DNA of 42,126 nt, taken from Candidatus Kuenenia sp. (GTDB lineage: Bacteria > Planctomycetota > Planctomycetia > Pirellulales > UBA1268). Shown piece after piece: positions 22,173 through 37,353 of the stretch. A program made the translations under genes and the position numbers. Location of the stretch: the NCBI GenBank assembly GCA_038144795.1, contig JAYQOK010000002.1:6769-48894 (forward strand), written 5' to 3'. Numbering within the stretch: position 1 is the first letter of the stretch; each line of letters starts with the position of its first letter. The notes beneath the pieces were generated by a model. That model was given only the letters and a program-made list of their open reading frames with translations, was not told the origin of the DNA and searched no databases.

Positions 22173-22202
22173 ATAATATACGTCGGTATAGGTGCCAGTC
22201 AA
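22173..22202 (-). promoter_or_regulatory. Candidate sigma70-type promoter (TTGACT-N16-TATATT or N18-TATTAT)
   Basis: Minus strand reads TTGACTGGCACCTATACCGACGTATATTAT, an AT-rich patch in GC-rich DNA, ending 7 nt before the ATG at 22165. Confidence 0.5.
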
Positions 22203-23737
22203 CGGACCCTGCCGTGCGTCGCTGCCCCGCCGACGAAGTCGCGCAGGTCGGCCCGCCGCAGCCTCCACCAGTACGACGCGGAAAATCCAGGCCAGAGCGC
22301 CGAAAGTCGGCCGGCCGGATCGCGATACCAGGTGGTACAGGGCCGTCGCCACGACGAGGCGGTCGAGCCCGCGCCAGCGGTGGAGCCCCACACAGTCCGC
22401 AGAAACCGCCGCTGGATCCATTTATTGAACTGATGCTGCACATCGGGCCGCACATCGATCTCGGGAAGCCGGCCGGCTTCGAGCAGGTCGAGGCAGGAGC
22501 TTACGTAGCGGACCTGCGCCTCGAGCATAAACACGATCGAGTTGTGGCCGAGGCCGGAGTTGGGGCCCATCAGCAGGAAGAGGTTCGGGTAGCCCGCCAC
22601 CATGAGGCCGTTGTAGGCCTCGGGGCCTGTGGCCCAGTCGTCGGCGAGTCGGCGGCCGCCCCGGCCACGGATGTCGATCTCGGTAGCCGGATTGAACGTG
22701 CGGAAGCCGGTGGCCAGCACGAGCACGTCCGCCGGTCGCTCCACGCAATCCGCCGTCACGATTCCCTGCGGGCGGATCGCGATGATCTTCTCGGTGGTCA
22801 CATCCACATTGTCACGGGCGAGCGCCGGGTAGTAATCGTCGGAGAGGAGCACCCGCTTGCAGCCCATCGTGTACTGCGGCGTGACCGCAGCGCGGAGGGC
22901 GGGATCCTTGATATGCCGGGCCAGATGAGCCAGCGACTCCCGCTGCCAGCTCCCCAGGAGCCATGGCCAGAGCGTGAAGCCGATCGCGATTGTCTCCGAC
23001 TCCATATAGAGGAGTGTCCGCCACAGCCGCTGCATGCCGGGGACATGGTCGAAGGCCCATCGCGCCCAGCGGGAGACCTTCCGGTCGTGCCGCGGCAAGA
23101 CCCACGGGGGCGTCCGCTGGCAGACCAGCAGCCGCTTCACCTGCGGGGCGATCGCAGGAATGATCTGGATTGCACTGGCGCCCGTGCCGATCACGGCCAC
23201 CCGTTTGCCGGCGAAGTCGACGTCGTGCCGCCAGCGGGCGGAGTGAAAGGCCGGGCCCGCAAACGTCTCAAGCCCCGGCAGTTCCGGAATCCGCGGCACA
23301 TGCAGGCCGCCCACGCCGGCCACGATGATGTCGGCCGTGAACGTGCGGCCGTCGGTGGCGGTGAGCTGCCAGCGTCGCTCGGCGTTGTCCCAGTCGAGCC
23401 GCATAATCTCCGTGTTGAACCGGATGCGGTCGGTGAGGCTGTGCTTGGCGGTCACCCGCTCCAGATAGCGAAGGATCTCCGGCTGCGGGGCGTAGGTTCG
23501 CGACCAGCCCGAATCCTGTTCGAATGAAAAGGAGTAGAGGTGGGAGGCGATATCGCAGGCACAACCCGGGTAGGTATTTTCCCGCCAGGTGCCCCCCACT
23601 CCGGCTGCCTTTTCGAAGATCGTGAATTCGCTGCGGCCGGTCTCGAGCAGTTGAATCGCCATCCCCAAGCCGCCGAAGCCGGCGCCGAGAATGGCAACGC
23701 GGGTGTGGTCGGTCGCTGAGGGCAGCAGGCTCGCCAT
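22199..23737 (-). CDS. Flavin-containing monooxygenase (Baeyer-Villiger/CzcO type)
   Basis: GAGFGG, GGTWRENTYPG, fingerprint FAGPAFHSARW, GTGASA, QRTPPW, ATGF. Confidence 0.92.
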   Translation of the reverse strand: MASLLPSATDHTRVAILGAGFGGLGMAIQLLETGRSEFTIFEKAAGVGGTWRENTYPGCACDIASHLYSFSFEQDSGWSRTYAPQPEILRYLERVTAKHSLTDRIRFNTEIMRLDWDNAERRWQLTATDGRTFTADIIVAGVGGLHVPRIPELPGLETFAGPAFHSARWRHDVDFAGKRVAVIGTGASAIQIIPAIAPQVKRLLVCQRTPPWVLPRHDRKVSRWARWAFDHVPGMQRLWRTLLYMESETIAIGFTLWPWLLGSWQRESLAHLARHIKDPALRAAVTPQYTMGCKRVLLSDDYYPALARDNVDVTTEKIIAIRPQGIVTADCVERPADVLVLATGFRTFNPATEIDIRGRGGRRLADDWATGPEAYNGLMVAGYPNLFLLMGPNSGLGHNSIVFMLEAQVRYVSSCLDLLEAGRLPEIDVRPDVQHQFNKWIQRRFLRTVWGSTAGAGSTASSWRRPCTTWYRDPAGRLSALWPGFSASYWWRLRRADLRDFVGGAATHGRVR

Positions 23738-23781
23738 GCTCCGAGGCTACCGTGCCGCCGCCGTCTCCGGAAACCGATCCT
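23726..23781. repeat. Left copy of 56-bp direct repeat (carB 3' end plus monooxygenase start)
   Basis: CAGGCTCGCCATGCTCCGAGGCTACCGTGCCGCCGCCGTCTCCGGAAACCGATCCT; 54/56 identical to 29668-29723; minus strand encodes [10 protein letters not shown]-stop, then MASL. Confidence 0.95.
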
Positions 23782-23802
23782 CCTTCGCGAGCCTGATCCG
23801 CG

Positions 23803-24570
23803 ATGAATTTGCTGCGCACTTTGTGCCCACCGCGCAAGCCAAAACGACTCCCCTCCGTCCTCAGTCATGAGGAAGTGACCGATCTGCTTGCCAGACTGAT
23901 TGGCCAGCCGGCAATAATTGCAACGCTTCTCTATGGCGCGGGCCTACGGCTCATGGAGGCGCTTCGCTTGCGAGTCAAGGATCTGGATTTCGAGCGCCGA
24001 GAGATCGTCATCCGGGAGGCGAAGGGCAACAAGGATCGAGTCAGCGTGATTCCCCAGTGCCTGGTACCTGAACTGGCGACCTCATTGAGGAAATGGCAGA
24101 CCGAGCATGCCCGCAGAGTCGAACTTGGCAGCGGCCGTGTGCAGCTACCGACAGCACTGGCCCGTAAATATCCTGCCTTGGAGACCGCCTGGGGGTGGCA
24201 GTGGGTATTCCCGGCAGAGCGAGACTACCGCGACCGCGTCGATGGCAGACACTACCGTCATCACATCCATGAAAGTACCGTCCAGCGAGCGGTAACCAAA
24301 GCTGCCCGTGACGCCGGCATCGTGAAACGGGCAACCTGCCATACGCTTCGGCACTCTTTCGCCACGCACTTGTTGGAAGGCGGCTATGACATCCGTACCG
24401 TCCAGGAGTTGCTGGGGCACAACGACGTACGCACGACGATGATCTACGCCCATGTACTTAATCGTGGCGGCCCACTGATTCGGAGCCCGGCCGACGGCCT
24501 TCCGGGACCGGGATTATGCCGCCCTCCAGCAGCAGAACACGCACCTTCCCCGCCGCGACCGTGTCGCTAA
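23803..24570 (+). CDS. intI: Integron integrase, N-terminally truncated (255 aa)
   Basis: LLYGAGLRLME, KGNKDR, IntI-specific insert ALARKYP...WQWVFP, HTLRHSFATHLL, QELLGH, TTMIY. Begins near RLPSVLS, with an in-frame TGA at 23794-23796 upstream. Confidence 0.92.
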   Translation: MNLLRTLCPPRKPKRLPSVLSHEEVTDLLARLIGQPAIIATLLYGAGLRLMEALRLRVKDLDFERREIVIREAKGNKDRVSVIPQCLVPELATSLRKWQTEHARRVELGSGRVQLPTALARKYPALETAWGWQWVFPAERDYRDRVDGRHYRHHIHESTVQRAVTKAARDAGIVKRATCHTLRHSFATHLLEGGYDIRTVQELLGHNDVRTTMIYAHVLNRGGPLIRSPADGLPGPGLCRPPAAEHAPSPPRPCR

Positions 24571-24584
24571 CCCTAATCGCATGC

Positions 24585-24614
24585 TTGACTTGCCAATCCC
24601 CACACACCTAGGCT
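24585..24614 (+). promoter_or_regulatory. Candidate cassette promoter (TTGACT-N18-TAGGCT)
   Basis: Lies between the intI stop and the first core site, pointing into the array; motif match only. Confidence 0.35.
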
Positions 24615-24617
24615 TCC

Positions 24618-24674
24618 GGGGTTATGCCGACACAAGAATGTGTTTCTGTGGAACGAGAGAAATACAAGTTATCC
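24618..24674 (+). other. Putative attI recombination site; crossover G/TTATCC at 24668-24674
   Basis: GTTATCC is the exact reverse complement of the first cassette's inverse core GGATAAC (25097); no attC hairpin precedes it; a second core-like GTTATGC lies 47 bp upstream. Confidence 0.7.
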
Positions 24675-24705
24675 TTTCTCAACCATCACATCTCACAGCC
24701 ACAAT

Positions 24706-25038
24706 ATGACAACTGACCAAAACCAATCCAACCAACTTGCGAGCGCTCCATCAGCATCTCGACTCGTCAAAACGGCCAGTTGGCTCGGCACATGGGCCGT
24801 TATTTGCGCTGCGATCTTCGTTCTTCGGTTTCGCAAGATTTGGCTTCTCGTTGGAGAATCATGGATAGGCCTCTTGGTCGGCTACTTTGTACTGTGGCTT
24901 GGGGGGGCGTCGCTTTACTTCGCATTTTCACAACTTGACCGCATCAAGTCCGAAGGACTTAAGTTTGTCGCACAGATGCTTCTCTGTCTCCTCGTCACAG
25001 TCGTGATTGGCGGGGTAATCTTAGTCATCACCTTCTAA
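24706..25038 (+). CDS. Cassette 1: hypothetical membrane protein (about 3 TM)
   Basis: ATG at 24706 is the first start inside the cassette (24669-25191); three hydrophobic segments. Confidence 0.75.
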   Translation: MTTDQNQSNQLASAPSASRLVKTASWLGTWAVICAAIFVLRFRKIWLLVGESWIGLLVGYFVLWLGGASLYFAFSQLDRIKSEGLKFVAQMLLCLLVTVVIGGVILVITF

Positions 25039-25096
25039 CCTCGCTTGTGAGCGCTTCATACATGGAGTGAATACACGTCGACAGGAAATCCGAAAC

Positions 25097-25197
25097 GGAT
25101 AACCACGCGATGCAACGGAGCGGAAATGGCGTTCCGATTTTTTCCTTAAATCAAGATCACTCGCGCCATTTCCGCCCGCTGATCGCCATCGTTCGCC
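25097..25197 (+). other. attC site 1 (101 bp)
   Basis: GGATAAC...GCGAT[G]CAACGG[A]GCGGAAATGGCG / CGCCATTTCCGC-CCGCTG-ATCGC...GTTCGCC; imperfect palindrome with two unpaired bases. Confidence 0.92.
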
Positions 25198-25249
25198 GGA
25201 CAATTCGGAAAACAGAGTTCGGCCTATCTCTACCGCGACCAAAAAAGCG

Positions 25250-25564
25250 ATGACAACGAAACCAATAACCGACCCCTGCCAGGAGACCATCCGGTCATTT
25301 GCGAAACGCTCTGATCGGACCGTATTGCTGATCACATTGCTGTTCGCCATGGGCGGAGCCTTCATAGATATCGCTCTTGGCGTTAGTGACGCATTGTTGG
25401 GCAGTCGTCCGGCGGTGTTCTGGGGGATTTGGGTGCCGCTTTGCTTCATTACCATCCCGCCACTCCATTACCTTTGCCGCAAAGTGTGGATCTTGCAAGA
25501 GCGCGTCCAGGCCCTTGAGTCGCAATTAAAGACCGAAGAGTGCCGTGAGCAGTGCAACGCCTAG
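25250..25564 (+). CDS. Cassette 2: hypothetical membrane protein (2 TM plus C-terminal coiled coil)
   Basis: Single ORF filling cassette 25192-25658; LQERVQALESQLK heptad pattern. Confidence 0.75.
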   Translation: MTTKPITDPCQETIRSFAKRSDRTVLLITLLFAMGGAFIDIALGVSDALLGSRPAVFWGIWVPLCFITIPPLHYLCRKVWILQERVQALESQLKTEECREQCNA

Positions 25565-25576
25565 CAGTCGCGTCGC

Positions 25577-25664
25577 GGCGAACAACGCGATGCAGCGGAC
25601 TCGCAATAAAATTGGGCGGTGTGGATCGCGTATGGCTGCGAGCCGCTGATCGCCCGCGTTAGCC
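25577..25664 (+). other. attC site 2 (88 bp)
   Basis: GGCGAAC...GCGAT[G]CAGCGG[A]CTCGCA / TGCGAG-CCGCTG-ATCGC...GTTAGCC. Confidence 0.93.
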
Positions 25665-25704
25665 GAAACCCGACCATCTCTCGCAAAGCAAAGGGTTGTC
25701 CCTC

Positions 25705-26007
25705 ATGAATGATCTGCTTCAACTTGCCTGTCTCATTAGTGTGGCTGCCCTACCACTTGTTGTGCTGGGCCTTCGCGCAGCCCGCCCAAAGTTCATGCCA
25801 TGGTGGGCCGTCTTCTTGCTTGTGATTGGGCTGGGGTGGGGGCTGGTCTTACTCGCCGCGATGCTGAACGAGACCAAGAATGGCGGTGCAGGCCATGTTT
25901 TCGCCCTGTTTTTTGGTTGGGCCATTGCGCTCATTTGGCTTGCCCCATGGCTTCTTGTGTATGCAGTCATCCAACTCTTTCGCCGCCGTGCGATTCCCCG
26001 TGCCTAA
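25705..26007 (+). CDS. Cassette 3: hypothetical membrane protein (about 3 TM)
   Basis: Stop TAA lies inside the attC3 inverse core GCCTAAC, a classic cassette arrangement; start ATG 25705 or TTG 25696. Confidence 0.8.
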   Translation: MNDLLQLACLISVAALPLVVLGLRAARPKFMPWWAVFLLVIGLGWGLVLLAAMLNETKNGGAGHVFALFFGWAIALIWLAPWLLVYAVIQLFRRRAIPRA

Positions 26008-26089
26008 CCACGCAATGCAGCGGACTCGCGATAAAATCAGTCCAGACGGAGAAGCCAAGGTCGCGAGCCGCTGATTGCTACCGTTCGGC
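26002..26089 (+). other. attC site 3 (88 bp)
   Basis: GCCTAAC...GCAAT[G]CAGCGG[A]CTCGCGA / TCGCGAG-CCGCTG-ATTGC...GTTCGGC. Confidence 0.93.
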
Positions 26090-26111
26090 AACAGGAAGGA
26101 AATGAGGCCCC

Positions 26112-27188
26112 ATGCGGCTGACACCCATCGCGATAACCATCTTCGGCTGGCTGGCGATCGGCACCACTTTTTCAGGAGACGCGGGCGAGCCGCCGGGCTC
26201 ACCTGCTGCTGCCTCAGCACGTATATTCAACGCACTCGATTACGGCGCTGTGGGCGACGACAATACTGATAATACGGCGGCATTTTCGGCTTGCATCAAG
26301 GACGTGATCGAAGCGGGAGGCGGCCGCATGATGATCCCCGTCGGGGTCTATCGCGGCAGAATCGTCATTCCCGGAACCAAAGAGTGGATCACCGTGGAAA
26401 TCGTGGGCGAAAGTGAACCCACCCCGGTCTTCGGGACGATCGGCGCATTTCCGTTTCCGAAGAATGGCACGACAATTAAATGCGTGTCGGAATCAGGTCC
26501 GGCGGTCATCTCCGCAGCCAACGTCCCCGCCAAGTTGTATTCGCAGTTCTCAGGGATCAACGTGAGCCTGCGAAACCTGGACGTCCGCACGTATGACAAT
26601 CCTGGGATCGGCGGCATCAATCTGCTAAACGCGGCGCAATGCAAACTCGAGAACGTCTTCGTCAACACCAATCGCTACAACGTACAGGCGTCCAAGCCCA
26701 CCCGCGGCACGGTCGGCATTAGCACCCCAGCCTGCAACAATGCAGCCCTCACGATCCTACGCAATGTCGTCGTGACCGGATATCACACCGGTATCCTGGT
26801 GAACGAGCATACCGATGGCGATAACGTTACCGTGGCGTCCAACGTCAACGGGCTGGAGTTTGCCTTCGCCTATCACGCCTCCAGATTCGGCCGGGTCGGC
26901 GCGTATCGATGCAGCCGCTGCCTCACGGTAACCGGCAAGCACGGTTTCTGCATCGAGCAGCTCAATGTAGAGATTGCCGGCCCCGGGCAGACCAGCAAAG
27001 ACAATGCGTGGCAAACCACTGAGTTCAACATTTACGCTCCCGAGAATCTCGGCACTGGTGACCTCAACTGGTGGGTTGTCGAGGGCAATGTTGGAGCGGT
27101 GGAGAAGTTCACGAAGAGTGGCGGAGAGCATGTCCGTACCCGACGGATCGGATCGCATCCAATTCCAGCAGAAAACTCGGCGAAATGA
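26112..27188 (+). CDS. Cassette 4: secreted pectate-lyase-superfamily beta-helix protein
   Basis: Signal peptide; FNALDYGAVGDDNTDNTAAF...GGGRMMIPVGVY motif; beta-helix coils (LRNLDV, LENVFV, LRNVVV). Confidence 0.85.
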   Translation: MRLTPIAITIFGWLAIGTTFSGDAGEPPGSPAAASARIFNALDYGAVGDDNTDNTAAFSACIKDVIEAGGGRMMIPVGVYRGRIVIPGTKEWITVEIVGESEPTPVFGTIGAFPFPKNGTTIKCVSESGPAVISAANVPAKLYSQFSGINVSLRNLDVRTYDNPGIGGINLLNAAQCKLENVFVNTNRYNVQASKPTRGTVGISTPACNNAALTILRNVVVTGYHTGILVNEHTDGDNVTVASNVNGLEFAFAYHASRFGRVGAYRCSRCLTVTGKHGFCIEQLNVEIAGPGQTSKDNAWQTTEFNIYAPENLGTGDLNWWVVEGNVGAVEKFTKSGGEHVRTRRIGSHPIPAENSAK

Positions 27189-27234
27189 TGATCCCCCCAA
27201 GCGATAGTCGGCACGGGACGCCGTATCAGGGCAT

Positions 27235-27323
27235 GCCGAACCAAGCCTTACAGCCGACTCGCGAGAGCGTCTTGCGGTATGGATGCCGTGTTGGCTGCGA
27301 GCGGCTGAAGGCGGTCGTTATCC
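27235..27323 (+). other. attC site 4 (89 bp)
   Basis: GCCGAAC...GCCTT[A]CAGCCG[A]CTCGC / GCGAG-CGGCTG-AAGGC...GTTATCC. Confidence 0.92.
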
Positions 27324-27327
27324 ACTC

Positions 27328-27882
27328 ATGAAAAGAATCGCTAATTCGCTCATTGCTGGTTGCATCGTGCTGCTCATCGCCGGATGTTCTCAGCGCACCA
27401 ACATTGGCTCGCAAACTACACGGACGGTCGACACGTACGACATAGATTTATTTGAAAAACTTGACGGAGAACTGAAAGCACTAAGCCGTGGAGTATCCTT
27501 GCTTCTCGCGATGAACCGGGAATCTGACCGATTCACAACTCTGACGGACTTTCTTGCAACGATTGACGCAGGCCAACTGCGCTGTGAAATCAGGGAACTG
27601 GAGTATTACCCTTTAGTTCTCTACATATATCACACATCTTACTACCTTCCCGATGGTTCGTATCGTCCAACGCTAGATCGCAAGTCAGCGCTCGTTCTTG
27701 TTGACGCGAAGACCCATCGCGTGATCGATTTCACATTTGAAACTGGCTATCGAACTGACGCTATAAGCAGCCAAGAACCGTACTACGAGGGATCATGGGA
27801 CCGTAAAGACGGGACAACTGTTACGTACAGGCTCCTACCCTCAGGTTTTGAGGTGTCGAAGGCAGAAGAGCAGGGCAAGTAA
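27328..27882 (+). CDS. Cassette 5: putative lipoprotein
   Basis: ATG 4 nt after the core site: MKRIANSLIAGCIVLLIAGC (lipobox LIAGC); the ORF-track start at 27283 falls inside attC4. Confidence 0.8.
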   Translation: MKRIANSLIAGCIVLLIAGCSQRTNIGSQTTRTVDTYDIDLFEKLDGELKALSRGVSLLLAMNRESDRFTTLTDFLATIDAGQLRCEIRELEYYPLVLYIYHTSYYLPDGSYRPTLDRKSALVLVDAKTHRVIDFTFETGYRTDAISSQEPYYEGSWDRKDGTTVTYRLLPSGFEVSKAEEQGK

Positions 27883-27892
27883 TCAACTACGC

Positions 27893-27983
27893 AGATAACA
27901 ATCGCATGCACCGGAGTTGCCGACGGTGCGGTATTCACATGGGAACATCGCTGGCGGCAACCCGGTGATGCGTGGCGTTATAC
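27893..27983 (+). other. attC site 5 (91 bp)
   Basis: AGATAAC...CGCAT[G]CACCGG[A]GTTGCCG / CGGCAAC-CCGGTG-ATGCG...GTTATAC. Confidence 0.93.
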
Positions 27984-28020
27984 TGCATCGAATGGCCGCG
28001 ATGGCGGAGAGTACATCTAC

Positions 28021-28407
28021 GTGACGGATAGCTCCAAACCTGAGTCGACTCTCGATTGGCTGGTCGGAGTACCGCTTCTCCTCCTAATCGGTGCGGTTGC
28101 AGTCGTGGTGGTCTCGCCGATACTGCTCGCGCGTGCGTTCATTCGGACCATCTGCCCCAGGTGTCACATCCCCGTGGCGAGGAAAATCCTTGCAACGACC
28201 TTCGATCGAGAAAACGTTAAATTCAACGTCGATCACTACCGTGTCTCGTGTGCCTGCCGTTGGTGCGGCAGTCGGTGGGACTACGAAAAGTTGCTCGGAG
28301 CCGACTTGCGCAGAGTTGACTTCCATGAAGGCGGTACACTCCGGGGCCCTCCGGGGCTGTCCTCGGGTAGCACCTTCAGTTCAATCCGAAAGCCCAGCGA
28401 TTCCTGA
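28021..28407 (+). CDS. Cassette 6: membrane-anchored putative zinc-ribbon protein
   Basis: One TM followed by CPRC and CACRWC cysteine clusters. Confidence 0.7.
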   Translation: MTDSSKPESTLDWLVGVPLLLLIGAVAVVVVSPILLARAFIRTICPRCHIPVARKILATTFDRENVKFNVDHYRVSCACRWCGSRWDYEKLLGADLRRVDFHEGGTLRGPPGLSSGSTFSSIRKPSDS

Positions 28408-28418
28408 CACCAATCGCA

Positions 28419-28510
28419 GTATCACAATCGAATGCACCGGATTTGCCACCGGTGCCGATTCCTGAAGTTGAGTGTCGCTGGCGGCAACCCGGTGATGCGT
28501 GTCGTTAGGA
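28419..28510 (+). other. attC site 6 (92 bp), degenerate inverse core
   Basis: GTATCAC (GTATAAC expected)...CGAAT[G]CACCGG[A]TTTGCC / GGCAAC-CCGGTG-ATGCG...GTTAGGA; right arm nearly identical to attC5. Confidence 0.88.
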
Positions 28511-28522
28511 GCACCCTGCAAC

Positions 28523-28777
28523 ATGCCCGCGATGAAGTTTCTGCTCTGGCTAACGTTATCCGGCTTTGCGGTTGCGGTCGGCGGCCTTGTTCATCGCGCA
28601 CTCGCGGTAGGCGTGCCGTATCAAGATCCCACTCCTGCCCAAGCCGCTGCGGAGCGGGTGTCCGTCGCTATCAGCGACTTGGCAATGGGTAGCGGTATAG
28701 TCATGTTGCTCGTGGGCCTCGTTGGGATGGCATTCATCGGCGTAGGCCGTCTGGTGAAATTGAAAGCCGGCTCCTAA
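28523..28777 (+). CDS. Cassette 7: small 2-TM membrane protein
   Basis: Start at ATG 28523 or 28532; two hydrophobic helices around GVPYQDPTP; stop TAA inside the attC7 inverse core TCCTAAC. Confidence 0.78.
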   Translation: MPAMKFLLWLTLSGFAVAVGGLVHRALAVGVPYQDPTPAQAAAERVSVAISDLAMGSGIVMLLVGLVGMAFIGVGRLVKLKAGS

Positions 28778-28861
28778 CCATACGATGCAAAGGACTCGCG
28801 GGTATCGTCATGGGTGATTGCTGCCCCGAGGGCCGCGAGCCTTTGATCTTTGCCGTTCGGC
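28772..28861 (+). other. attC site 7 (90 bp)
   Basis: TCCTAAC...GAT[G]CAAAGG[A]CTCGCGG / CCGCGAG-CCTTTG-ATC...GTTCGGC. Confidence 0.9.
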
Positions 28862-28934
28862 CGGATCAGTTTAGACGTTGCGTCATGCTGAAAGCAATTG
28901 TTTCAAAACGCCTAACCCTCTGAAAGTGTATCTC

Positions 28935-29363
28935 ATGAACAGTCTATTTTCGTTACATCTTGGCTGCCGCCTCGCGGTTTTGGTTGTTCTGGTTTTTAAT
29001 GTTGGATGCGGAACTCAGAGGAACTCCCGAACTACTTCGACGACGCCTACTTCGGAGGATGACATTCCAGCAGCATCCTTTATGGAGCGAATTGATGACC
29101 ACGATAGAAAACATCTCCTTGAGTGGTTTACTGCTGAAAAACCGATGGACGAGATTTACAGGTGGTTTGACACAGAGTTGCCAAAGGCTGGATGGCAACG
29201 CATTTCTGATGCGGAAGATCACCCAATTACCAGGACACTCCAGTTTCAAAAGGGTGACAGGAAATGCAAAATAGAAATCTCTGGTTTTATGACCGGCGGC
29301 ACCATGTCAAACCCTCAAGTTGATTCAAAGTTTTTTATTGAAATATGGCCAAACCTAAAGTAA
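28935..29363 (+). CDS. Cassette 8: putative lipoprotein
   Basis: MNSLFSLHLGCRLAVLVVLVFNVGC (lipobox-like), Ser/Thr linker, then YRWFDTELPKAGW; AT-rich. The ORF track starts at TTG 28878. Confidence 0.72.
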   Translation: MNSLFSLHLGCRLAVLVVLVFNVGCGTQRNSRTTSTTPTSEDDIPAASFMERIDDHDRKHLLEWFTAEKPMDEIYRWFDTELPKAGWQRISDAEDHPITRTLQFQKGDRKCKIEISGFMTGGTMSNPQVDSKFFIEIWPNLK

Positions 29364-29443
29364 CATGCAGTGTTTACCATTAGTCGACTGTTACGTGAAC
29401 GACGCCGATCGATGTCCTTCTGAACTAAATCAGAAGCAATCAG

Positions 29444-29534
29444 ACATAGCCAAGCGGTGAACCGGAACCGCCGATCACGCGGATTTCTGAAGTCAGAATT
29501 CTTGGCGGCGGCCCGGTTACCGCCGCCGTTATGT
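29444..29534 (+). other. attC site 8 (91 bp), degenerate inverse core
   Basis: ACATAGC (AAC replaced by AGC)...GCGGT[G]AACCGG[A]ACCGCCG / CGGCGGC-CCGGTT-ACCGC...GTTATGT. Confidence 0.85.
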
Positions 29535-29667
29535 GGCGGAGAGCGACAACGGCGCTGGCGGGTGAGCGATCACCTGAATCAACGCTTGGCCACGTTGTTC
29601 GGGCAACCGCCTACCTCGCGTTCATTTTCCCTTTCCTCCTCATGGGTGACGGGAGAGTGGAGGAGGA

Positions 29668-29723
29668 CAGGCTCGCCATGCCCCGAGGCTACCGTGCCGC
29701 CGCCGTCTCCGGAAACCGGTCCT
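29668..29723. repeat. Right copy of 56-bp direct repeat (contains the functional carB stop)
   Basis: CAGGCTCGCCATGCCCCGAGGCTACCGTGCCGCCGCCGTCTCCGGAAACCGGTCCT; two mismatches versus 23726-23781. Confidence 0.95.
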
Positions 29724-32700
29724 GGATCGCCTGCACTGAGAGCAGGTCGTTCCGCATCGCCTCCATAGCCCGCACACAGGCCTCGGCGGCCGGCAGTGTC
29801 GTGATGCAAGGCACGCCATACTGCACGCTCGCCGCCCGAATCCGCCCCTCGTCGGTACGGGCCCCCTTCCCCCGCGGCGTATTGAAGATGAGGTGCACGC
29901 GGCCGTCGATCAGATAGTCGAGCAGGTTGGGATGCCCTTCCTGGAGCTTCCGCATCGGCTCGACCGGAATCCCCGCCGCCGTAAGGGCGCGGGCCGTGCC
30001 TTCCGTCGCGATCAGTTCGAAACCGAGCGCCACCAGCCTCCCCGCCAGTCCCACCATCGATTCCTTGGCCTGCGGGCTGGCAACGCTCAAAAAGATCCGC
30101 CCCTCGCGGGGCAGGAGGATGCCGGCGGCGATCTGACTCTTGGCAAAAGCGATGCTGAACTGCTCGCTCACCCCCATCACCTCGCCGGTGCTCCGCATCT
30201 CCGGGCCCAGGGCGATATCGACGCCGGCAAACTTCACAAACGGAAACACGCTCTCCTTCACACTGCGATGGGCCGGCACCGGATCGGCGTCGATTCCCTG
30301 CTCGGCCAGACCGAGCCCCGCCATCACCTTCACCGCCACCTTCGCCACCGGCAGGCCCGTCGCCTTGGCGACGAAAGGCACGGTGCGACTGGCACGCGGA
30401 TTGACCTCGATCACGTAAAGCGTGGGCGTGCCGTCTTCCTTCTTGACGGCAAACTGCACGTTCATCAGGCCGATCACGCCAAGGCTCTTCGCCATCTCGG
30501 TAGCGGCGGCCTTGATCTCGTCGACCACTTCGGCCGAGAGGCTGTGCGGCGGGATGCAGCAGGCTGAGTCGCCGGAATGTACCCCCGCTTCTTCAATGTG
30601 TTCCATCACGCCGGCCACGATCACGTCGCGGCCGTCACTGATACAATCGACATCGACTTCGATCGCATCCTCGAGAAACCGGTCGATCAAGACCGGCTGC
30701 CCCTGAGCCACCGCAAAGGCCTCTGCCACATACCGCTCGAACTGCACCGTGTCGTAGCAGATCTCCATCGCCCGGCCACCAAGCACGAAGCTCGGCCGCA
30801 CGAGGCTCGGGAATCCGATCCGGGCCACCTCCCGCCGGGCCTGCTCGAGCGTGCGGGCGATACCGCTGGCCGGCTGCCTAAGGCCGAGGCGGTCGAGCAG
30901 CTCGCGAAACTTCTCGCGATCCTCCGCCGTCTCGATCGTGTCGACGGTCGTGCCGATGATCGGCAGGCCGGCGGCATGGAGGGCTCGAGCAAGGTTGAGT
31001 GGGGTCTGGCCCCCGAGTTGCACGATCACGCCGTCGGGCTGGATGCGATCGGCGATATTGAGCACATCCTCGCAGGTGAGCGGCTCGAAGAAGAGCATGT
31101 CGCTCGTGTCATAGTCGGTGCTTACCGTCTCAGGATTGGAGTTGACCATCACGCTCTCGATCCCCATCTCGCGAAGCGCGAAGCTGGCATGGCAGCAGCA
31201 GTAGTCAAACTCGATCCCTTGCCCGATCCTGTTGGGCCCACCCCCGAGGATCATCACCCGCTTGCGGCCCGGCTCCTTGGGCCGCGTTTCGTCCTCGTCT
31301 TCCCAGGTCGAATAGTAGTAAGGCGTCTGGGCCTCGAACTCGGCAGCGCAGGTATCGACCGACTTGTAGGTGGCGACCACACCCCGTCGCTTCCTCTCCT
31401 CGCGAACATCCATCTCCGAACTGCCGAGCATCACAGCCAGTTGCCTGTCAGAGAAGCCATATTGCTTGGCCTGCCGCAGGAGCCCCGTGTCGATCGCCGC
31501 CAGCGACCCGACCTCGCGAAGCAGGCTCTCCAGTTCCACGATCTGCAGCAACTGGTCGAGAAACCAGGGGTCGATCGCCGTCAACGAATGTAGTTCATCG
31601 ACCGTCATCCCCGCCTTCAGGGCATACCGCAGATACCACACGCGATCTGGGTCGGGCGTAGACACGCGGGCACGGATATCGTCAGGCGATGGCTCCGCCG
31701 CCGTACCCCATAGATCCTTGCCGTCGCAGCCGAATCCGAACGAGCCCACCTCCAGGCCGCGGAGCGCCTTCTGAAAGGCCTCCTTAAAAGTCCGCCCGAT
31801 CGCCATCGTCTCCCCTACGCTCTTCATCTGCGTGGTGAGCCGGCTGTCGGCCTCGGGAAACTTCTCGAAGGCAAACCGCGGCACCTTGACGACGACATAG
31901 TCGATCGACGGCTCAAAGCAGGCCATCGTCTTCCGAGTGATGTCATTGGCCAGTTCATGTAGACGCCAACCAACAGCAAGCTTGGCGGCTATTTTTGCGA
32001 TCGGAAACCCGGTGGCCTTACTGGCCAAAGCCGAAGAGCGACTCACGCGGGGGTTCATCTCGATCACGATCATCCGGCCGGTCCGTGGATCAACGGCGAA
32101 TTGGATATTGGAGCCGCCGGTCGCTACGCCGATCGCACGAATGACGGCAAAACTGGCATCCCGCATCCGCTGATACTGCTTGTCGGTGAGCGTCATTGCC
32201 GGGGCGACAGTAATTGAGTCGCCGGTGTGCACGCCACAGGGATCGAAATTTTCGATGGAGCAGATGACGACGGCATTGTCGTCGGCATCCCGCATCACCT
32301 CCATCTCGTATTCCTTCCAACCGAGAATCGATTCCTCGACGAGTACTTCGCTGACTGGCGAAAGGTCGAGGCCCCGCTGGACCTTGTGGTCGAATTCCTC
32401 ACGGTTGTAAGCAACGCCTGATCCGGAGCCACCAAGCGTGAAGCTCGGACGGATGACAGCAGGCAGGCCGATCTCGGCGAGCACCTCACGAGCCTCGGGC
32501 AGACTTTTCACAATCTGGCCACGGCAGGTGTCGAGACCGATCTTCTGCATCGTTTCCTTAAAGATCTCCCGATCCTCACCCCGCTTGATCGCGTCTGCCC
32601 TGGCGCCGATCATCTCCACGCCGTGCTTGGCGAGGATGCCGCGGCTGTCAAGCTCCATCGCGAGGTTGAGCGCTGTCTGGCCGCCCAGCGTCGGCAGCAC

Positions 32701-32955
32701 CGCATCGGGCTTCTCGACCTCGATAACCTTCTCGAGCATCTCCCAGGTGAGTGGCTCGATGTAGGTGCGGTCAGCCGTGCCCGGGTCGGTCATGATCGTA
32801 GCCGGGTTGGAATTCACGAGCACTACCCTGTAGCCGTCTTCCCGAAGGGCCTTGCAGGCCTGGGTGCCGGAGTAGTCGAACTCGCAGGCCTGACCGATGA
32901 CGATGGGGCCAGAACCAATGAGGAGGATTGTGTGGAAGTCGTCGCGGCGGGGCAT
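29689..32955 (-). CDS. carB: Carbamoyl-phosphate synthase large subunit
   Basis: Start MPRRDD...[22 protein letters not shown]; duplicated ATP-grasp ([19 protein letters not shown]); [14 protein letters not shown]; C-terminal MGS domain. Confidence 0.97.
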
Positions 32956-33094
32956 GGCGTTTCGGAGGGTGACGGGCGGGAAAAAACAAATTTCCCAAAG
33001 GTAGCACGGGTCCCCTTTTCTCTTCAACGAGCCGCTAAAATCTGCGGGAGTTTCACCGTCTTGCTGCCCTCGTACTTTTTCGGAGCCTCCATCC

Positions 33095-33631
33095 ATGTCC
33101 ATTGCCACGCCCGCGCTCGATGCCCTGCGCGATACCCTAGCCGACGAATTCAAAGACACCCGCCTCAATCTCGCGAGCGTGCTGGCCGGCGAAAACCTCG
33201 ATCCTGCGAAGGCGTTTGGCGTGGCTCTTTCGGCAGCCCGGTTCGTCCGGGCCAAAAAACTGGTGGCAGCTTTGGAATCGGATATTCATGCCGGCCTCGG
33301 CAACGCAGCTGCGGCCATGATTTCCGATGCCGTCGCCGCCGCCGGAGTGATGGCGATGAACACAGTCTACTATCGATTTCGCCATATGCTGGCGAAGGAG
33401 AGCTACGAGGCCCGGGCGCCGCGGCTGCGGATGAGCCGAATGGCTCAGCCCGCCACCGACAAGCAGACCTTCGAACTGATGAGTCTCGCCTGTGCGGCAC
33501 TGGCCGGCTGCGAACTCTGCATCCGCAACCATGAGGCTCACCTCATTGACGCGGGCGCGAGCGAAGACGCCTGCCACGACGCCGTTCGCATCGCTGCCGC
33601 GATCAACGCTGCAGCGGTTGCGCTGGCATGA
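33095..33631 (+). CDS. ahpD: Alkylhydroperoxidase AhpD (carboxymuconolactone decarboxylase family)
   Basis: [36 protein letters not shown] (CxxC plus His). Confidence 0.85.
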
Positions 33632-36015: not shown

Positions 36016-37353
36016 TTGGGAAACGGCACAACTCTCGTCTGCAGTGGTCGCTCTGATGTGGGCTGCCGACGGGCCATGAATCAAGACGCCCACGCCATCC
36101 TTCCCCCATCAGGCCCCGAGGCCTATCGGAAGACCGGCTGGTTTCTCATTGTTGCCGACGGCATGGGCGCTCACGCCGCTGGTGAAGAAGCCAGTGGCAT
36201 GGCAGCGGATCGCGTACCTCACCTGTACCAGAAAATCATCAACACGACCCCACCCGACGCACTCCAACGGGCGATGCGGCAGGCGAATGCTGAGATCTTT
36301 GACAAGGGAGAGACGCATCCCGGTTTCCGTGGCATGGGGACTACGTGCAGCGCTCTTGTGATGGTCCCGCGGGGCGCCTTGATCGGCCATGTCGGGGACA
36401 GCCGAGTGTATCGCATCCGTGGTCATCGTATTGAGCAACTCACTCGCGACCACTCGTTGGCCTGGGAGTGCGGTCTGCCAGAGAAAGAGGCTGAGGGCAT
36501 TCCGAAAAACATCATTACTCGTTCGATGGGTCCCCATGCCGAGGTTGAGCCTGATCTCGAAGGCCCGCTCCCCATTCGGAATGGTGACATCTTCGTCCTG
36601 TGTAGCGATGGTCTCTCGGGCCAGGTCAGCAATGCAGAAATCGGACTCCTCGCTTCGCAACTCTCCGACGTGGATCAGGCAACCAAGGCACTCGTGGGCT
36701 TGACGCTCGCGCGCGGGGCTCCGGACAACGTGACTGTCGTCATTGCTAGAGCCGGTCCCGAGGAAGTTACCTCGTCGTACGCAAGGCAAGAGCCCTGGCC
36801 ACTTACCGATGGGCCCCAAACACCTTCATCAATGCCGGGTCTCGCCTGGAAATCACTCCTTGCTGCCGGCATGTGTTTTTTTCTGTTCCTGGTTCTTAAA
36901 GGCGACCTGATCCAGCCCAAGTCGCCCACTGCGGAAGCGATTACAGGAATCGGGGCTGCCGCTGCCGCACTTGCCACGGTCGTGTTCCTTGGCGGTGCGG
37001 CGCTGGCCGCCATTGCCAGACAAAGCACGGCACTTGCCGGCGCGCGAGCAACTCGGCAGAACCACGGATCGTATCAAGAAGCCGACTGCACTCCTGACCA
37101 CAGACACTTTGCGGACCTCGCCAAGAGCATCGAGACGATTGCATCAGAACTCTCCCCCTCTGAGCAGCAGCAACTTGTTCCGCTTGCAGCGGAGGTTTGG
37201 GAGCGGAGTTCAGCCCACCAATTCGACGGCGCCATCAACGCGGCGGCAACTGCCCTCTGCCTCATTGCTGATGCACTACCACGAAATCGGTCAGAGCGAA
37301 AGCAGCACCAGAGCGAACCCGCCGGCCTGGATCGGCCTGCCGCTGATGAATGA
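36016..37353 (+). CDS. PP2C-family Ser/Thr phosphatase with two TM segments
   Basis: SDVGCRRAMNQD, VADGMGAH, GMGTT, HVGDSRVY, LTRDHS, LCSDGL, DNVT. Confidence 0.92.
   Translation: MGNGTTLVCSGRSDVGCRRAMNQDAHAILPPSGPEAYRKTGWFLIVADGMGAHAAGEEASGMAADRVPHLYQKIINTTPPDALQRAMRQANAEIFDKGETHPGFRGMGTTCSALVMVPRGALIGHVGDSRVYRIRGHRIEQLTRDHSLAWECGLPEKEAEGIPKNIITRSMGPHAEVEPDLEGPLPIRNGDIFVLCSDGLSGQVSNAEIGLLASQLSDVDQATKALVGLTLARGAPDNVTVVIARAGPEEVTSSYARQEPWPLTDGPQTPSSMPGLAWKSLLAAGMCFFLFLVLKGDLIQPKSPTAEAITGIGAAAAALATVVFLGGAALAAIARQSTALAGARATRQNHGSYQEADCTPDHRHFADLAKSIETIASELSPSEQQQLVPLAAEVWERSSAHQFDGAINAAATALCLIADALPRNRSERKQHQSEPAGLDRPAADE

Follow-up and report, generated by a model that had tools for sequence, protein, structure and literature searches.

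How does a whole integron come to lie between two chromosomal genes that both remain intact, framed by long direct repeats, and by what route could it leave again? This question is raised by a locus in Candidatus Kuenenia sp., which we analysed within a stretch of 42,126 nucleotides (contig JAYQOK010000002.1 of assembly GCA_038144795.1; hereafter the window). There, an integron separates carB, the essential gene for the large subunit of carbamoyl-phosphate synthase, from a monooxygenase gene. An earlier note, made from the sequence alone, had read the arrangement as an integron island mobilised by its own or a trans-acting recombinase, or as the eroded remnant of a larger element that targets carB. 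Our analysis upholds a true insertion with duplication of its target, but not mobility driven by the integron's own integrase. The reading that we favour, at a probability of about one half, is that of a decaying sedentary chromosomal integron that arrived in a one-off duplicative insertion and whose flanking repeats now recombine homologously.

The locus is laid out as follows, in window coordinates:

22199..23737, minus strand: flavin-dependent monooxygenase gene (FMO/Baeyer-Villiger-like), whole, with its first four codons inside the left repeat (Pfam PF00743, 3.5e-18).
23726..23781, no strand: left direct repeat, holding the monooxygenase start, a 9-nt spacer and the displaced last 10 carB codons plus stop (repeat comparison, shuffle test).
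23763..23774, with a second copy at 29705-29716, no strand: imperfect 12-nt palindrome around TCCGGA in the carB tail (read from the sequence; any role is conjectural).
23803..24570, plus strand: 5'-truncated integron integrase gene (intI), an open reading frame (ORF) of 255 aa transcribed towards the cassettes (TIGR02249, 310.8 bits, cut-off 265).
24571..24672, plus strand: putative attI region; the window and the metagenome contig L131 (see below) are alike up to ACAAGTTAT (24664-24672) and then enter different first cassettes.
24673..29536, plus (top) strand: array of eight cassettes, each terminated by an attC site (repeat families D1-D3).
25096-25199, 25576-25666, 26001-26091 and 27234-27325, plus strand: attC sites 1-4.
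27892-27985, 28418-28512, 28771-28863 and 29443-29536, plus strand: attC sites 5-8.
29537..29667, no strand: terminal segment of 131 nt between the last attC and the right repeat (query 29535-29667 against the genome and fetched loci).
29668..29723, no strand: right direct repeat, holding the working carB end and the displaced spacer and first four monooxygenase codons (repeat comparison, shuffle test).
29689..33255, minus strand: carB, whole (NF003671, 1640.7 bits).

The two repeats agree at 54 of 56 positions, start 5942 bases apart and enclose 5886 bp, all as the earlier note had it; a weaker similarity between them extends to 63 nt. With up to three mismatches allowed, the 56-nt pattern occurs at exactly two places in the window, and two or more matches arose in none of 100 dinucleotide shuffles. 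The whole assembly, a metagenome-assembled genome (MAG; 280 contigs, 3.74 Mb, 89.5% complete, 3.4% contamination), also contains two copies, both at the carB-monooxygenase locus. Read back from the minus strand, the repeat comprises the last 10 carB codons, the stop, the 9-nt spacer and ATG GCG AGC CTG (MASL). One mismatch is synonymous (GAC/GAT) and the other falls in the spacer, and the reading frames of carB and the monooxygenase are both whole. The insert has a G+C content of 49-58%, compared with about 59-72% in the flanks, and the outer neighbours are ordinary genes (an RlmKL-type methyltransferase, a branched-chain amino-acid transporter, an AMP-binding ligase, a PP2C phosphatase and LptF/G).

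With an integrase above its model cut-off and eight attC sites, the insert qualifies as an integron. For seven of the eight attC sites, the minimum-energy fold of the minus strand is a long imperfect hairpin with single-base bulges in the 3' arm; the lowest-energy fold of the site at 28419-28510 lacks that hairpin, and the folding z-scores of the eight sites lie between -1.45 and -4.22. A covariance model trained on these same eight sites (R1) finds nine further ones: four in genome G075, three in the congener G004, one in G084 and one on contig C16 of the window's own genome. It detects none where a congener's site is empty or holds another type of insert, and an Rfam scan of the window gave no family at gathering score. 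Upstream of the array, the point at ACAAGTTAT (24664-24672) where the window and L131 part company would be the attI cassette-insertion point, as judged from the alignment. Only one cassette ORF has a Pfam match, which is pectate-lyase-like. The terminal segment matches only L131 (96% over 101 nt) in the window's genome and every fetched locus, and may be a cut cassette.

The integrase gene itself is not whole. Its ORF begins 21 nt past the left repeat, with an in-frame TGA directly upstream of the ATG, and matches only positions 88-315 of the 315 in TIGR02249. Its best relative in the PDB is IntI4 of Vibrio cholerae (2A3V, 4.1e-53), of which residues 99-317 of 320 are aligned. This alignment takes in the W.W.FP region, and the catalytic domain and the IntI-specific insertion are present. 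Because nothing before residue 99 of IntI4 is matched, the N-terminal, DNA-clamping domain is missing, and a gene truncated in this way is probably non-functional. No Pfam match to another recombinase was found among the nine insert ORFs scanned. The earlier observation of a sole, IntI-type recombinase 21 bp from the left repeat stands as to spacing and uniqueness among those ORFs, but the gene is a truncated one.

No other IntI rises above the cut-off in the 89.5%-complete genome, where the same search returned a Xer-like gene on contig C80. Contig C16 carries a second integron remnant or attC cluster (about 36736-37162) with a 47-residue C-terminal intI fragment and an attC site at the contig end (locus L129, 1847-1927). 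We considered this fragment as the source of the window's copy and rejected it: the two share 68% identity over 38 aa, and it is no recent twin. In a collection of species-representative genomes, the closest IntI has 68% identity and comes from a Pirellulales MAG; a near-identical full-length copy was not found there.

Comparison with the 11 other species of the genus (G001-G011, all MAGs, as is the window's genome, G000) reveals several states of the same site. In five of them carB adjoins the monooxygenase with a single copy of the repeat; G011, G008 and G010 were checked base by base, and G002 and G003 by adjacency at lower identity. These single-copy sites bear out both the predicted empty site and an insertion that duplicated its target. 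Monooxygenase orthologues occur in eight congeners, at 76-88% DNA identity. At position 23740, in the spacer, the working left copy of the repeat reads GGAG. The right copy has GGGG, as do the empty sites of G011 and G008, and the change in the left copy may improve the ribosome-binding site of the monooxygenase.

One congener, G004, carries an integron at the same site and in the same orientation. Its intI lies beside the monooxygenase and is a pseudogene with stops and deletions, more decayed than that of the window. Its array is split over two contigs, the second of which, on the carB side, has an IS3-family element as well as three attC sites. Its cassettes are all unlike the window's; the inner right flanks share no detectable similarity either, and the exact left junction is deleted in G004. 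It has its own pair of repeats, of about 50 nt with four differences, the left one ending at about position 50. The case considered in the earlier note, of relatives that carry the integron without a repeat and of no empty site, is not what the genus presents. An IS3-family transposase pair lies inside or just past the G004 array (L032, 10472-11682), and short pieces of it match many contig ends in the window's genome.

The remaining congeners show other arrangements. In G006 and G009, 31 nt of the carB tail survive at a distance of about 700 bp from the monooxygenase and end at repeat position 55; carB was not found near them in either assembly, both being incomplete (76% and 50%). An opposite-strand ORF of 212 aa crosses this remnant (in G009, L035 2011-2649 with the remnant at 2083-2113; also L034 of G006), and the monooxygenase of both species has a different N-terminus. 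G001 lacks the carB-monooxygenase adjacency, and G005 and G007 carry a different insertion, to which we return below.

How old is the integron at this site? In the monooxygenase tree, the window's genome groups with G011 (support 89/91) and G004 with G006 and G009, while G008 and G010 fall outside both groups; identity of RlmKL to the window's genome is 88-95% in G011 and 77-90% in G004. On these grounds, which amount to two or three genes from MAGs, the empty-site species G011 is the nearest to the window's genome and sits between the two integron bearers. Sliding identity between the window's genome and G004 shows no rise near the junction, which speaks against a recent regional transfer and fits vertical descent; for the same reason we did not adopt a lateral exchange between the two through flanking homology. 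Since the integron is also present in G004, at a flank identity of 82-87%, the insertion looks old. The simplest reading of these comparisons would be one gain in the ancestor of the five species of these two groups, followed by clean loss in G011.

Further insight into the ancestral form comes from the metagenome contig L131 (1488 nt), the one match in a scan of metagenome contigs for the repeat core; a collection of viral contigs gave none. In window orientation, L131 runs from the final 100 nt of the insert (96-97% identical) through a single repeat copy, intI and the attI region into a different first cassette. The end of the array and intI therefore meet at a single repeat, the array end lying on one side and the conserved part of intI starting about 10-25 nt away on the other. 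This joint could be that of a circle, a tandem duplication or an assembly chimera formed through the repeat. The joined ends that the earlier note had predicted for a circle junction are thus seen as a topology, but in a single contig that is a possible chimera. The first cassette of L131 (reverse complement of 973-1488) contains two small ORFs that look toxin-antitoxin-like by eye.

The intI of L131 contains about 270 nt of N-terminal coding sequence that the window lacks, and its remainder has two internal deletions. Aligned with L131, the window shows a single missing block of about 135 nt beside the repeat and a poor match between the VNDFL codons and position 23964; G004 is missing two blocks, with about 14 nt kept between them. 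Because different blocks are missing, the deletions in the two genomes are independent, and an ancestral truncation shared by both, which we had entertained, was rejected once both were aligned to L131. Because L131 retains the N-terminal coding sequence, the conserved N-terminal domain was complete in the ancestor at this locus. Yet L131, the fullest form of the gene seen here, has no start codon before an internal ATG, and it lacks the N-terminal extension and upstream region seen in all nine aligned relatives from the family (seven of the nine being full-length intI ORFs). Since even L131 lacks these parts, the left end of the insert cuts into intI.

Contigs of public sequencing runs add to this picture within the limits of the material: the evidence from runs consists of Logan contigs only, which drop rare forms and are uninformative where a part is uncovered. 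An empty-site joint, which in reads would appear as a skip of 5942 bases, was not seen in the contigs of four runs; those of X1 and X3, from which the assembly probably derives, end within both repeats and for that reason neither confirm nor refute the joins. A contig of run X7, from another study, spans 23629-23832 (monooxygenase, left repeat and intI start) with three differences, and this run has almost no cover of the window's cassettes. Run X4, a lagoon metagenome, has an intI with 11 differences in 653 bases and one of the window's cassettes. It also shows attC-to-attC joints at 25620>26005 and 26035>29526, which skip cassette 3 and cassettes 4-8, but with sides of only 31 letters these are weak evidence; another X4 contig has extra letters inside the truncated intI, at 23832/23833. 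L131, X7 and X4 have the same intI with other cassettes. Because the cassettes differ while the junction is constant, this suggests that the integrase worked here for a time, or that one acted in trans.

The repeats, too, have a history. Repeat positions 2 and 9 belong to monooxygenase codons and serve no purpose in the right copy, yet they read A/C in both copies of the window's genome and G/T in both copies of G004. Drift of each copy on its own would not produce such shared, species-specific changes, which point to gene conversion between the copies. Because the copies share host variants in both genomes, homologous exchange fits better than a fixed crossover point.

Integrons are found at various loci in the family, including an intact one in the congener G010, which is empty at carB. 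In G075, the only family member whose array lies inside a contig (the others run off contig ends), intI also points towards the cassettes, and there is no flanking repeat. No copy of the window's repeat was seen beside intI at other family loci, and in 151 family genomes the ends of the window's insert (the same cut in intI and the same 131-nt end) did not recur. All nine of the family relatives (L152-L159, L136) have a T/A-rich palindromic motif some 100-140 nt ahead of the conserved LLDRVR codons of intI; it contains TGTACA in six and variants such as TGTTCAC and TGTATAC in the other three, and resembles a LexA-type operator. This motif is missing at the window's locus and in L131.

Taken together, these observations lead us to the following model. 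The insert would be a small, decaying, sedentary integron of a type common in the family, with intI transcribed towards the cassettes, a piece of which entered the tightly packed carB-monooxygenase junction a single time, in the ancestor of the five-species clade. This piece would have started at about codon 20-25 of intI and reached 131 nt beyond an attC. Its insertion would have duplicated about 56 bp of the target, and because of this duplication both genes stayed whole. It may have entered in one isolated event, either illegitimate or a replication template switch, or as a DNA circle integrated by a single crossover. The insert ends, one in intI and the other 131 nt past an attC, are not those of a defined mobile element, and because both cut through integron parts we prefer such an entry over a dedicated element. 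The integrase may have worked at first, given an ancestral form in which the conserved N-terminal domain was complete and an internal ATG was present, and cassettes that differ in every strain and species seen; intI would later have decayed independently in separate lineages. The repeats would now act as short substrates of homologous recombination, with gene conversion keeping the copies alike. A crossover between them would either cleanly remove the integron, thereby explaining the empty site of G011, or duplicate it, and a circle or a tandem product would account for the joined ends of L131.

Several points weigh against this model. Separate insertions, each copying its host's own target, would also explain why the repeat copies share variants, and a single origin of the integrons in the window's genome and in G004 is not proven. 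The species relationships that place G011 between the integron bearers depend on the few MAG genes named above. On the side of the product, L131 is one contig of 1488 nt that could be an assembly chimera, and the skip of 5942 bases is absent from the contigs of the four runs. The last two points concern a second insertion at the end of carB, in G005 and G007 (2 of the 11 congeners). Two illegitimate events of such similar geometry would be a coincidence, which a site-specific system explains better, and the diverged working carB tail of G005 is what an element-borne replacement of the carB 3' end would be expected to leave.

In this second case, a block of 3.1 kb with genes for an ABC-F ATPase, a methyltransferase and a Bcp peroxiredoxin lies between carB and a displaced carB tail. 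In G005 it is flanked by 55-nt repeats identical at 54 of 55 positions (L037, 5596-5650 and 8773-8827); the counterpart in G007 is at L036 6811-6887. The G005 repeats overlap that of the window over 21 bases, which include the TCCGGA palindrome, here perfect over 16 nt in both species. The working carB tail of G005 is a diverged copy, and the displaced one looks ancestral. The three genes are single-copy, and their orthologues in the window's genome and in G004 are housekeeping genes at other positions; no recombinase was found in the block.

These features bring us to the strongest of the alternatives, which we consider possible but rather improbable: that a site-specific system, with a tyrosine or serine recombinase that is lost or supplied in trans and acts at the TCCGGA core, has the repeats as its attL and attR. 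The integron would then be the surviving cargo of a larger carB-targeting element, or be mobilised in trans, and L131 would be the attP form. Repeats of 50-56 nt that rebuild a gene's 3' end, the existence of empty sites, the attP topology of L131 and the foreign base composition of the insert all agree with such a system. So does the G005/G007 insertion, whose 55-nt repeats fall on the same 21 bases with their palindrome and which has a diverged replacement tail, as do the end of the 31-nt remnant of G006 and G009 at repeat position 55 and the end of the left repeat of G004 at about position 50. On the other hand, the truncated IntI alone gave a recombinase hit in Pfam among the nine ORFs of the 5.9-kb insert, the G005 insert yielded none, and the insert ends cut through intI. 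Host variants in the left part of the right repeat are not expected from a fixed crossover, and the repeat core is absent from the viral contig collection. Pairs of carB tails were seen only in this genus, by a search that is blind to other genera: a back-translated carB-tail pattern run over 176 family genomes gave five fetched hits outside the genus, none of which matched carB, and a reversed-pattern control hit several genomes as well.

A related and still more doubtful proposal is a true integron island. The whole integron would excise as a circle with one 56-bp junction copy and re-enter at the carB 3' end through the palindromic core, served by a recombinase in trans or by the ancestral full-length IntI, at a hot spot that also moved a gene block in a sister lineage. 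If this were true, sedentary integrons could move between chromosomes without a transposon or plasmid.

That IntI itself moves the whole integron, with the repeat as a double-stranded attachment site beside the start of intI, is very improbable, even though the arrangement in L131 is like that of an int-attP module. Residues 1-98 of IntI4 have no counterpart in the window's IntI; in L131 the first start codon is the internal ATG, and the upstream region of the nine family homologues is lacking; and both ends of the insert cut integron parts, so the self-mobile integron of the earlier note is not supported. Moreover, IntI crossovers at G|TT are not known to duplicate 56 bp, the closely related G075 integron has no flanking repeat and other family loci have none beside intI, and by eye the repeat does not visibly resemble the attI region. 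Finally, that an integron contig was spliced into the junction by the assembler through a shared k-mer is scarcely credible: although this is a 280-contig MAG with 3.4% contamination and the Logan contigs of its probable source runs break inside both repeats, the repeats differ at two positions and each continues into a different whole gene, the independent X7 contig spans the left junction, G004 has an intI remnant beside the monooxygenase and attC sites beside carB, and L131 links a repeat copy to the right inner flank.

Why does this locus matter? The arrival and loss of sedentary chromosomal integrons are poorly documented, and the gains and losses described in the main texts of two studies rest only on distribution over a tree (PMC3607928; bioRxiv 10.1101/2025.06.18.660453). 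In this genus all the stages can be seen together: sites that are empty, one that is occupied and has a long target duplication, independently decaying intI genes, arrays that vary among strains and a candidate product of excision or duplication. Two ideas become testable: that an integron can be cleanly lost, amplified or transferred by way of short repeats derived from its host, and that recombination is concentrated at the carB end in these bacteria. Should the origin prove to be an ordinary illegitimate insertion, the locus stays a neat example and introduces no new mechanism.

No description of a chromosomal integron bracketed by a long target duplication, or located at carB, was found in the literature (main texts, with the carB search blurred by carbapenem), nor was any report of carB as an attachment site, in a search where 'carb' also matched carbapenem. 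Several known systems nevertheless share parts of the arrangement. Genomic islands and prophages that integrate at the 3' ends of genes or tRNA genes have attL and attR repeats that rebuild the gene end. As in these islands, repeats of about 55 nt cover the 3' end of a gene that stays whole, the repeats duplicate the target, relatives have empty sites with a single repeat copy and the insert has a foreign composition. In contrast to them, the insert has no island integrase, its ends cut integron parts and the repeat copies change in concert. Integrons are also said to have been mobilised by flanking MITE-like structures (Gillings and colleagues, 2009); there, too, a whole integron lies between two repeat copies, but those are copies of a transposable element with short target duplications, whereas the repeat in the window is a host gene junction. 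Cury and colleagues (2016) reportedly distinguish CALINs, that is attC clusters without an integrase, and integrons with a pseudo-intI. The window's locus lies on the path from a complete integron to a CALIN, with G004 further along it, although these categories do not describe insertion junctions.

The closest parallels are with integrons that stay in place. As described in one of the two studies, the Xanthomonas integron downstream of ilvD is ancestral and vertically inherited, its intI is often inactivated by stops, frameshifts or deletions, its arrays differ between lineages, and extra attC clusters lie elsewhere in the genome (bioRxiv 10.1101/2025.06.18.660453). The integron studied here is likewise chromosomal, at one locus in its genus, with a decaying intI, lineage-specific arrays and extra attC clusters; it differs in its 56-bp target duplication, in the empty site of a sister species and in an intI that points towards the cassettes. 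The latter orientation is shared with the integrons of Treponema, for which a system gained once and later lost entirely in one lineage is described (PMC3607928). The term 'direct repeat' does not occur in the main text of either study (PMC3607928; bioRxiv 10.1101/2025.06.18.660453). As in the Treponema type, intI and cassettes occupy one strand, and to such a history of gain and loss the repeats and the empty site at carB add a concrete route by which an integron may be lost.

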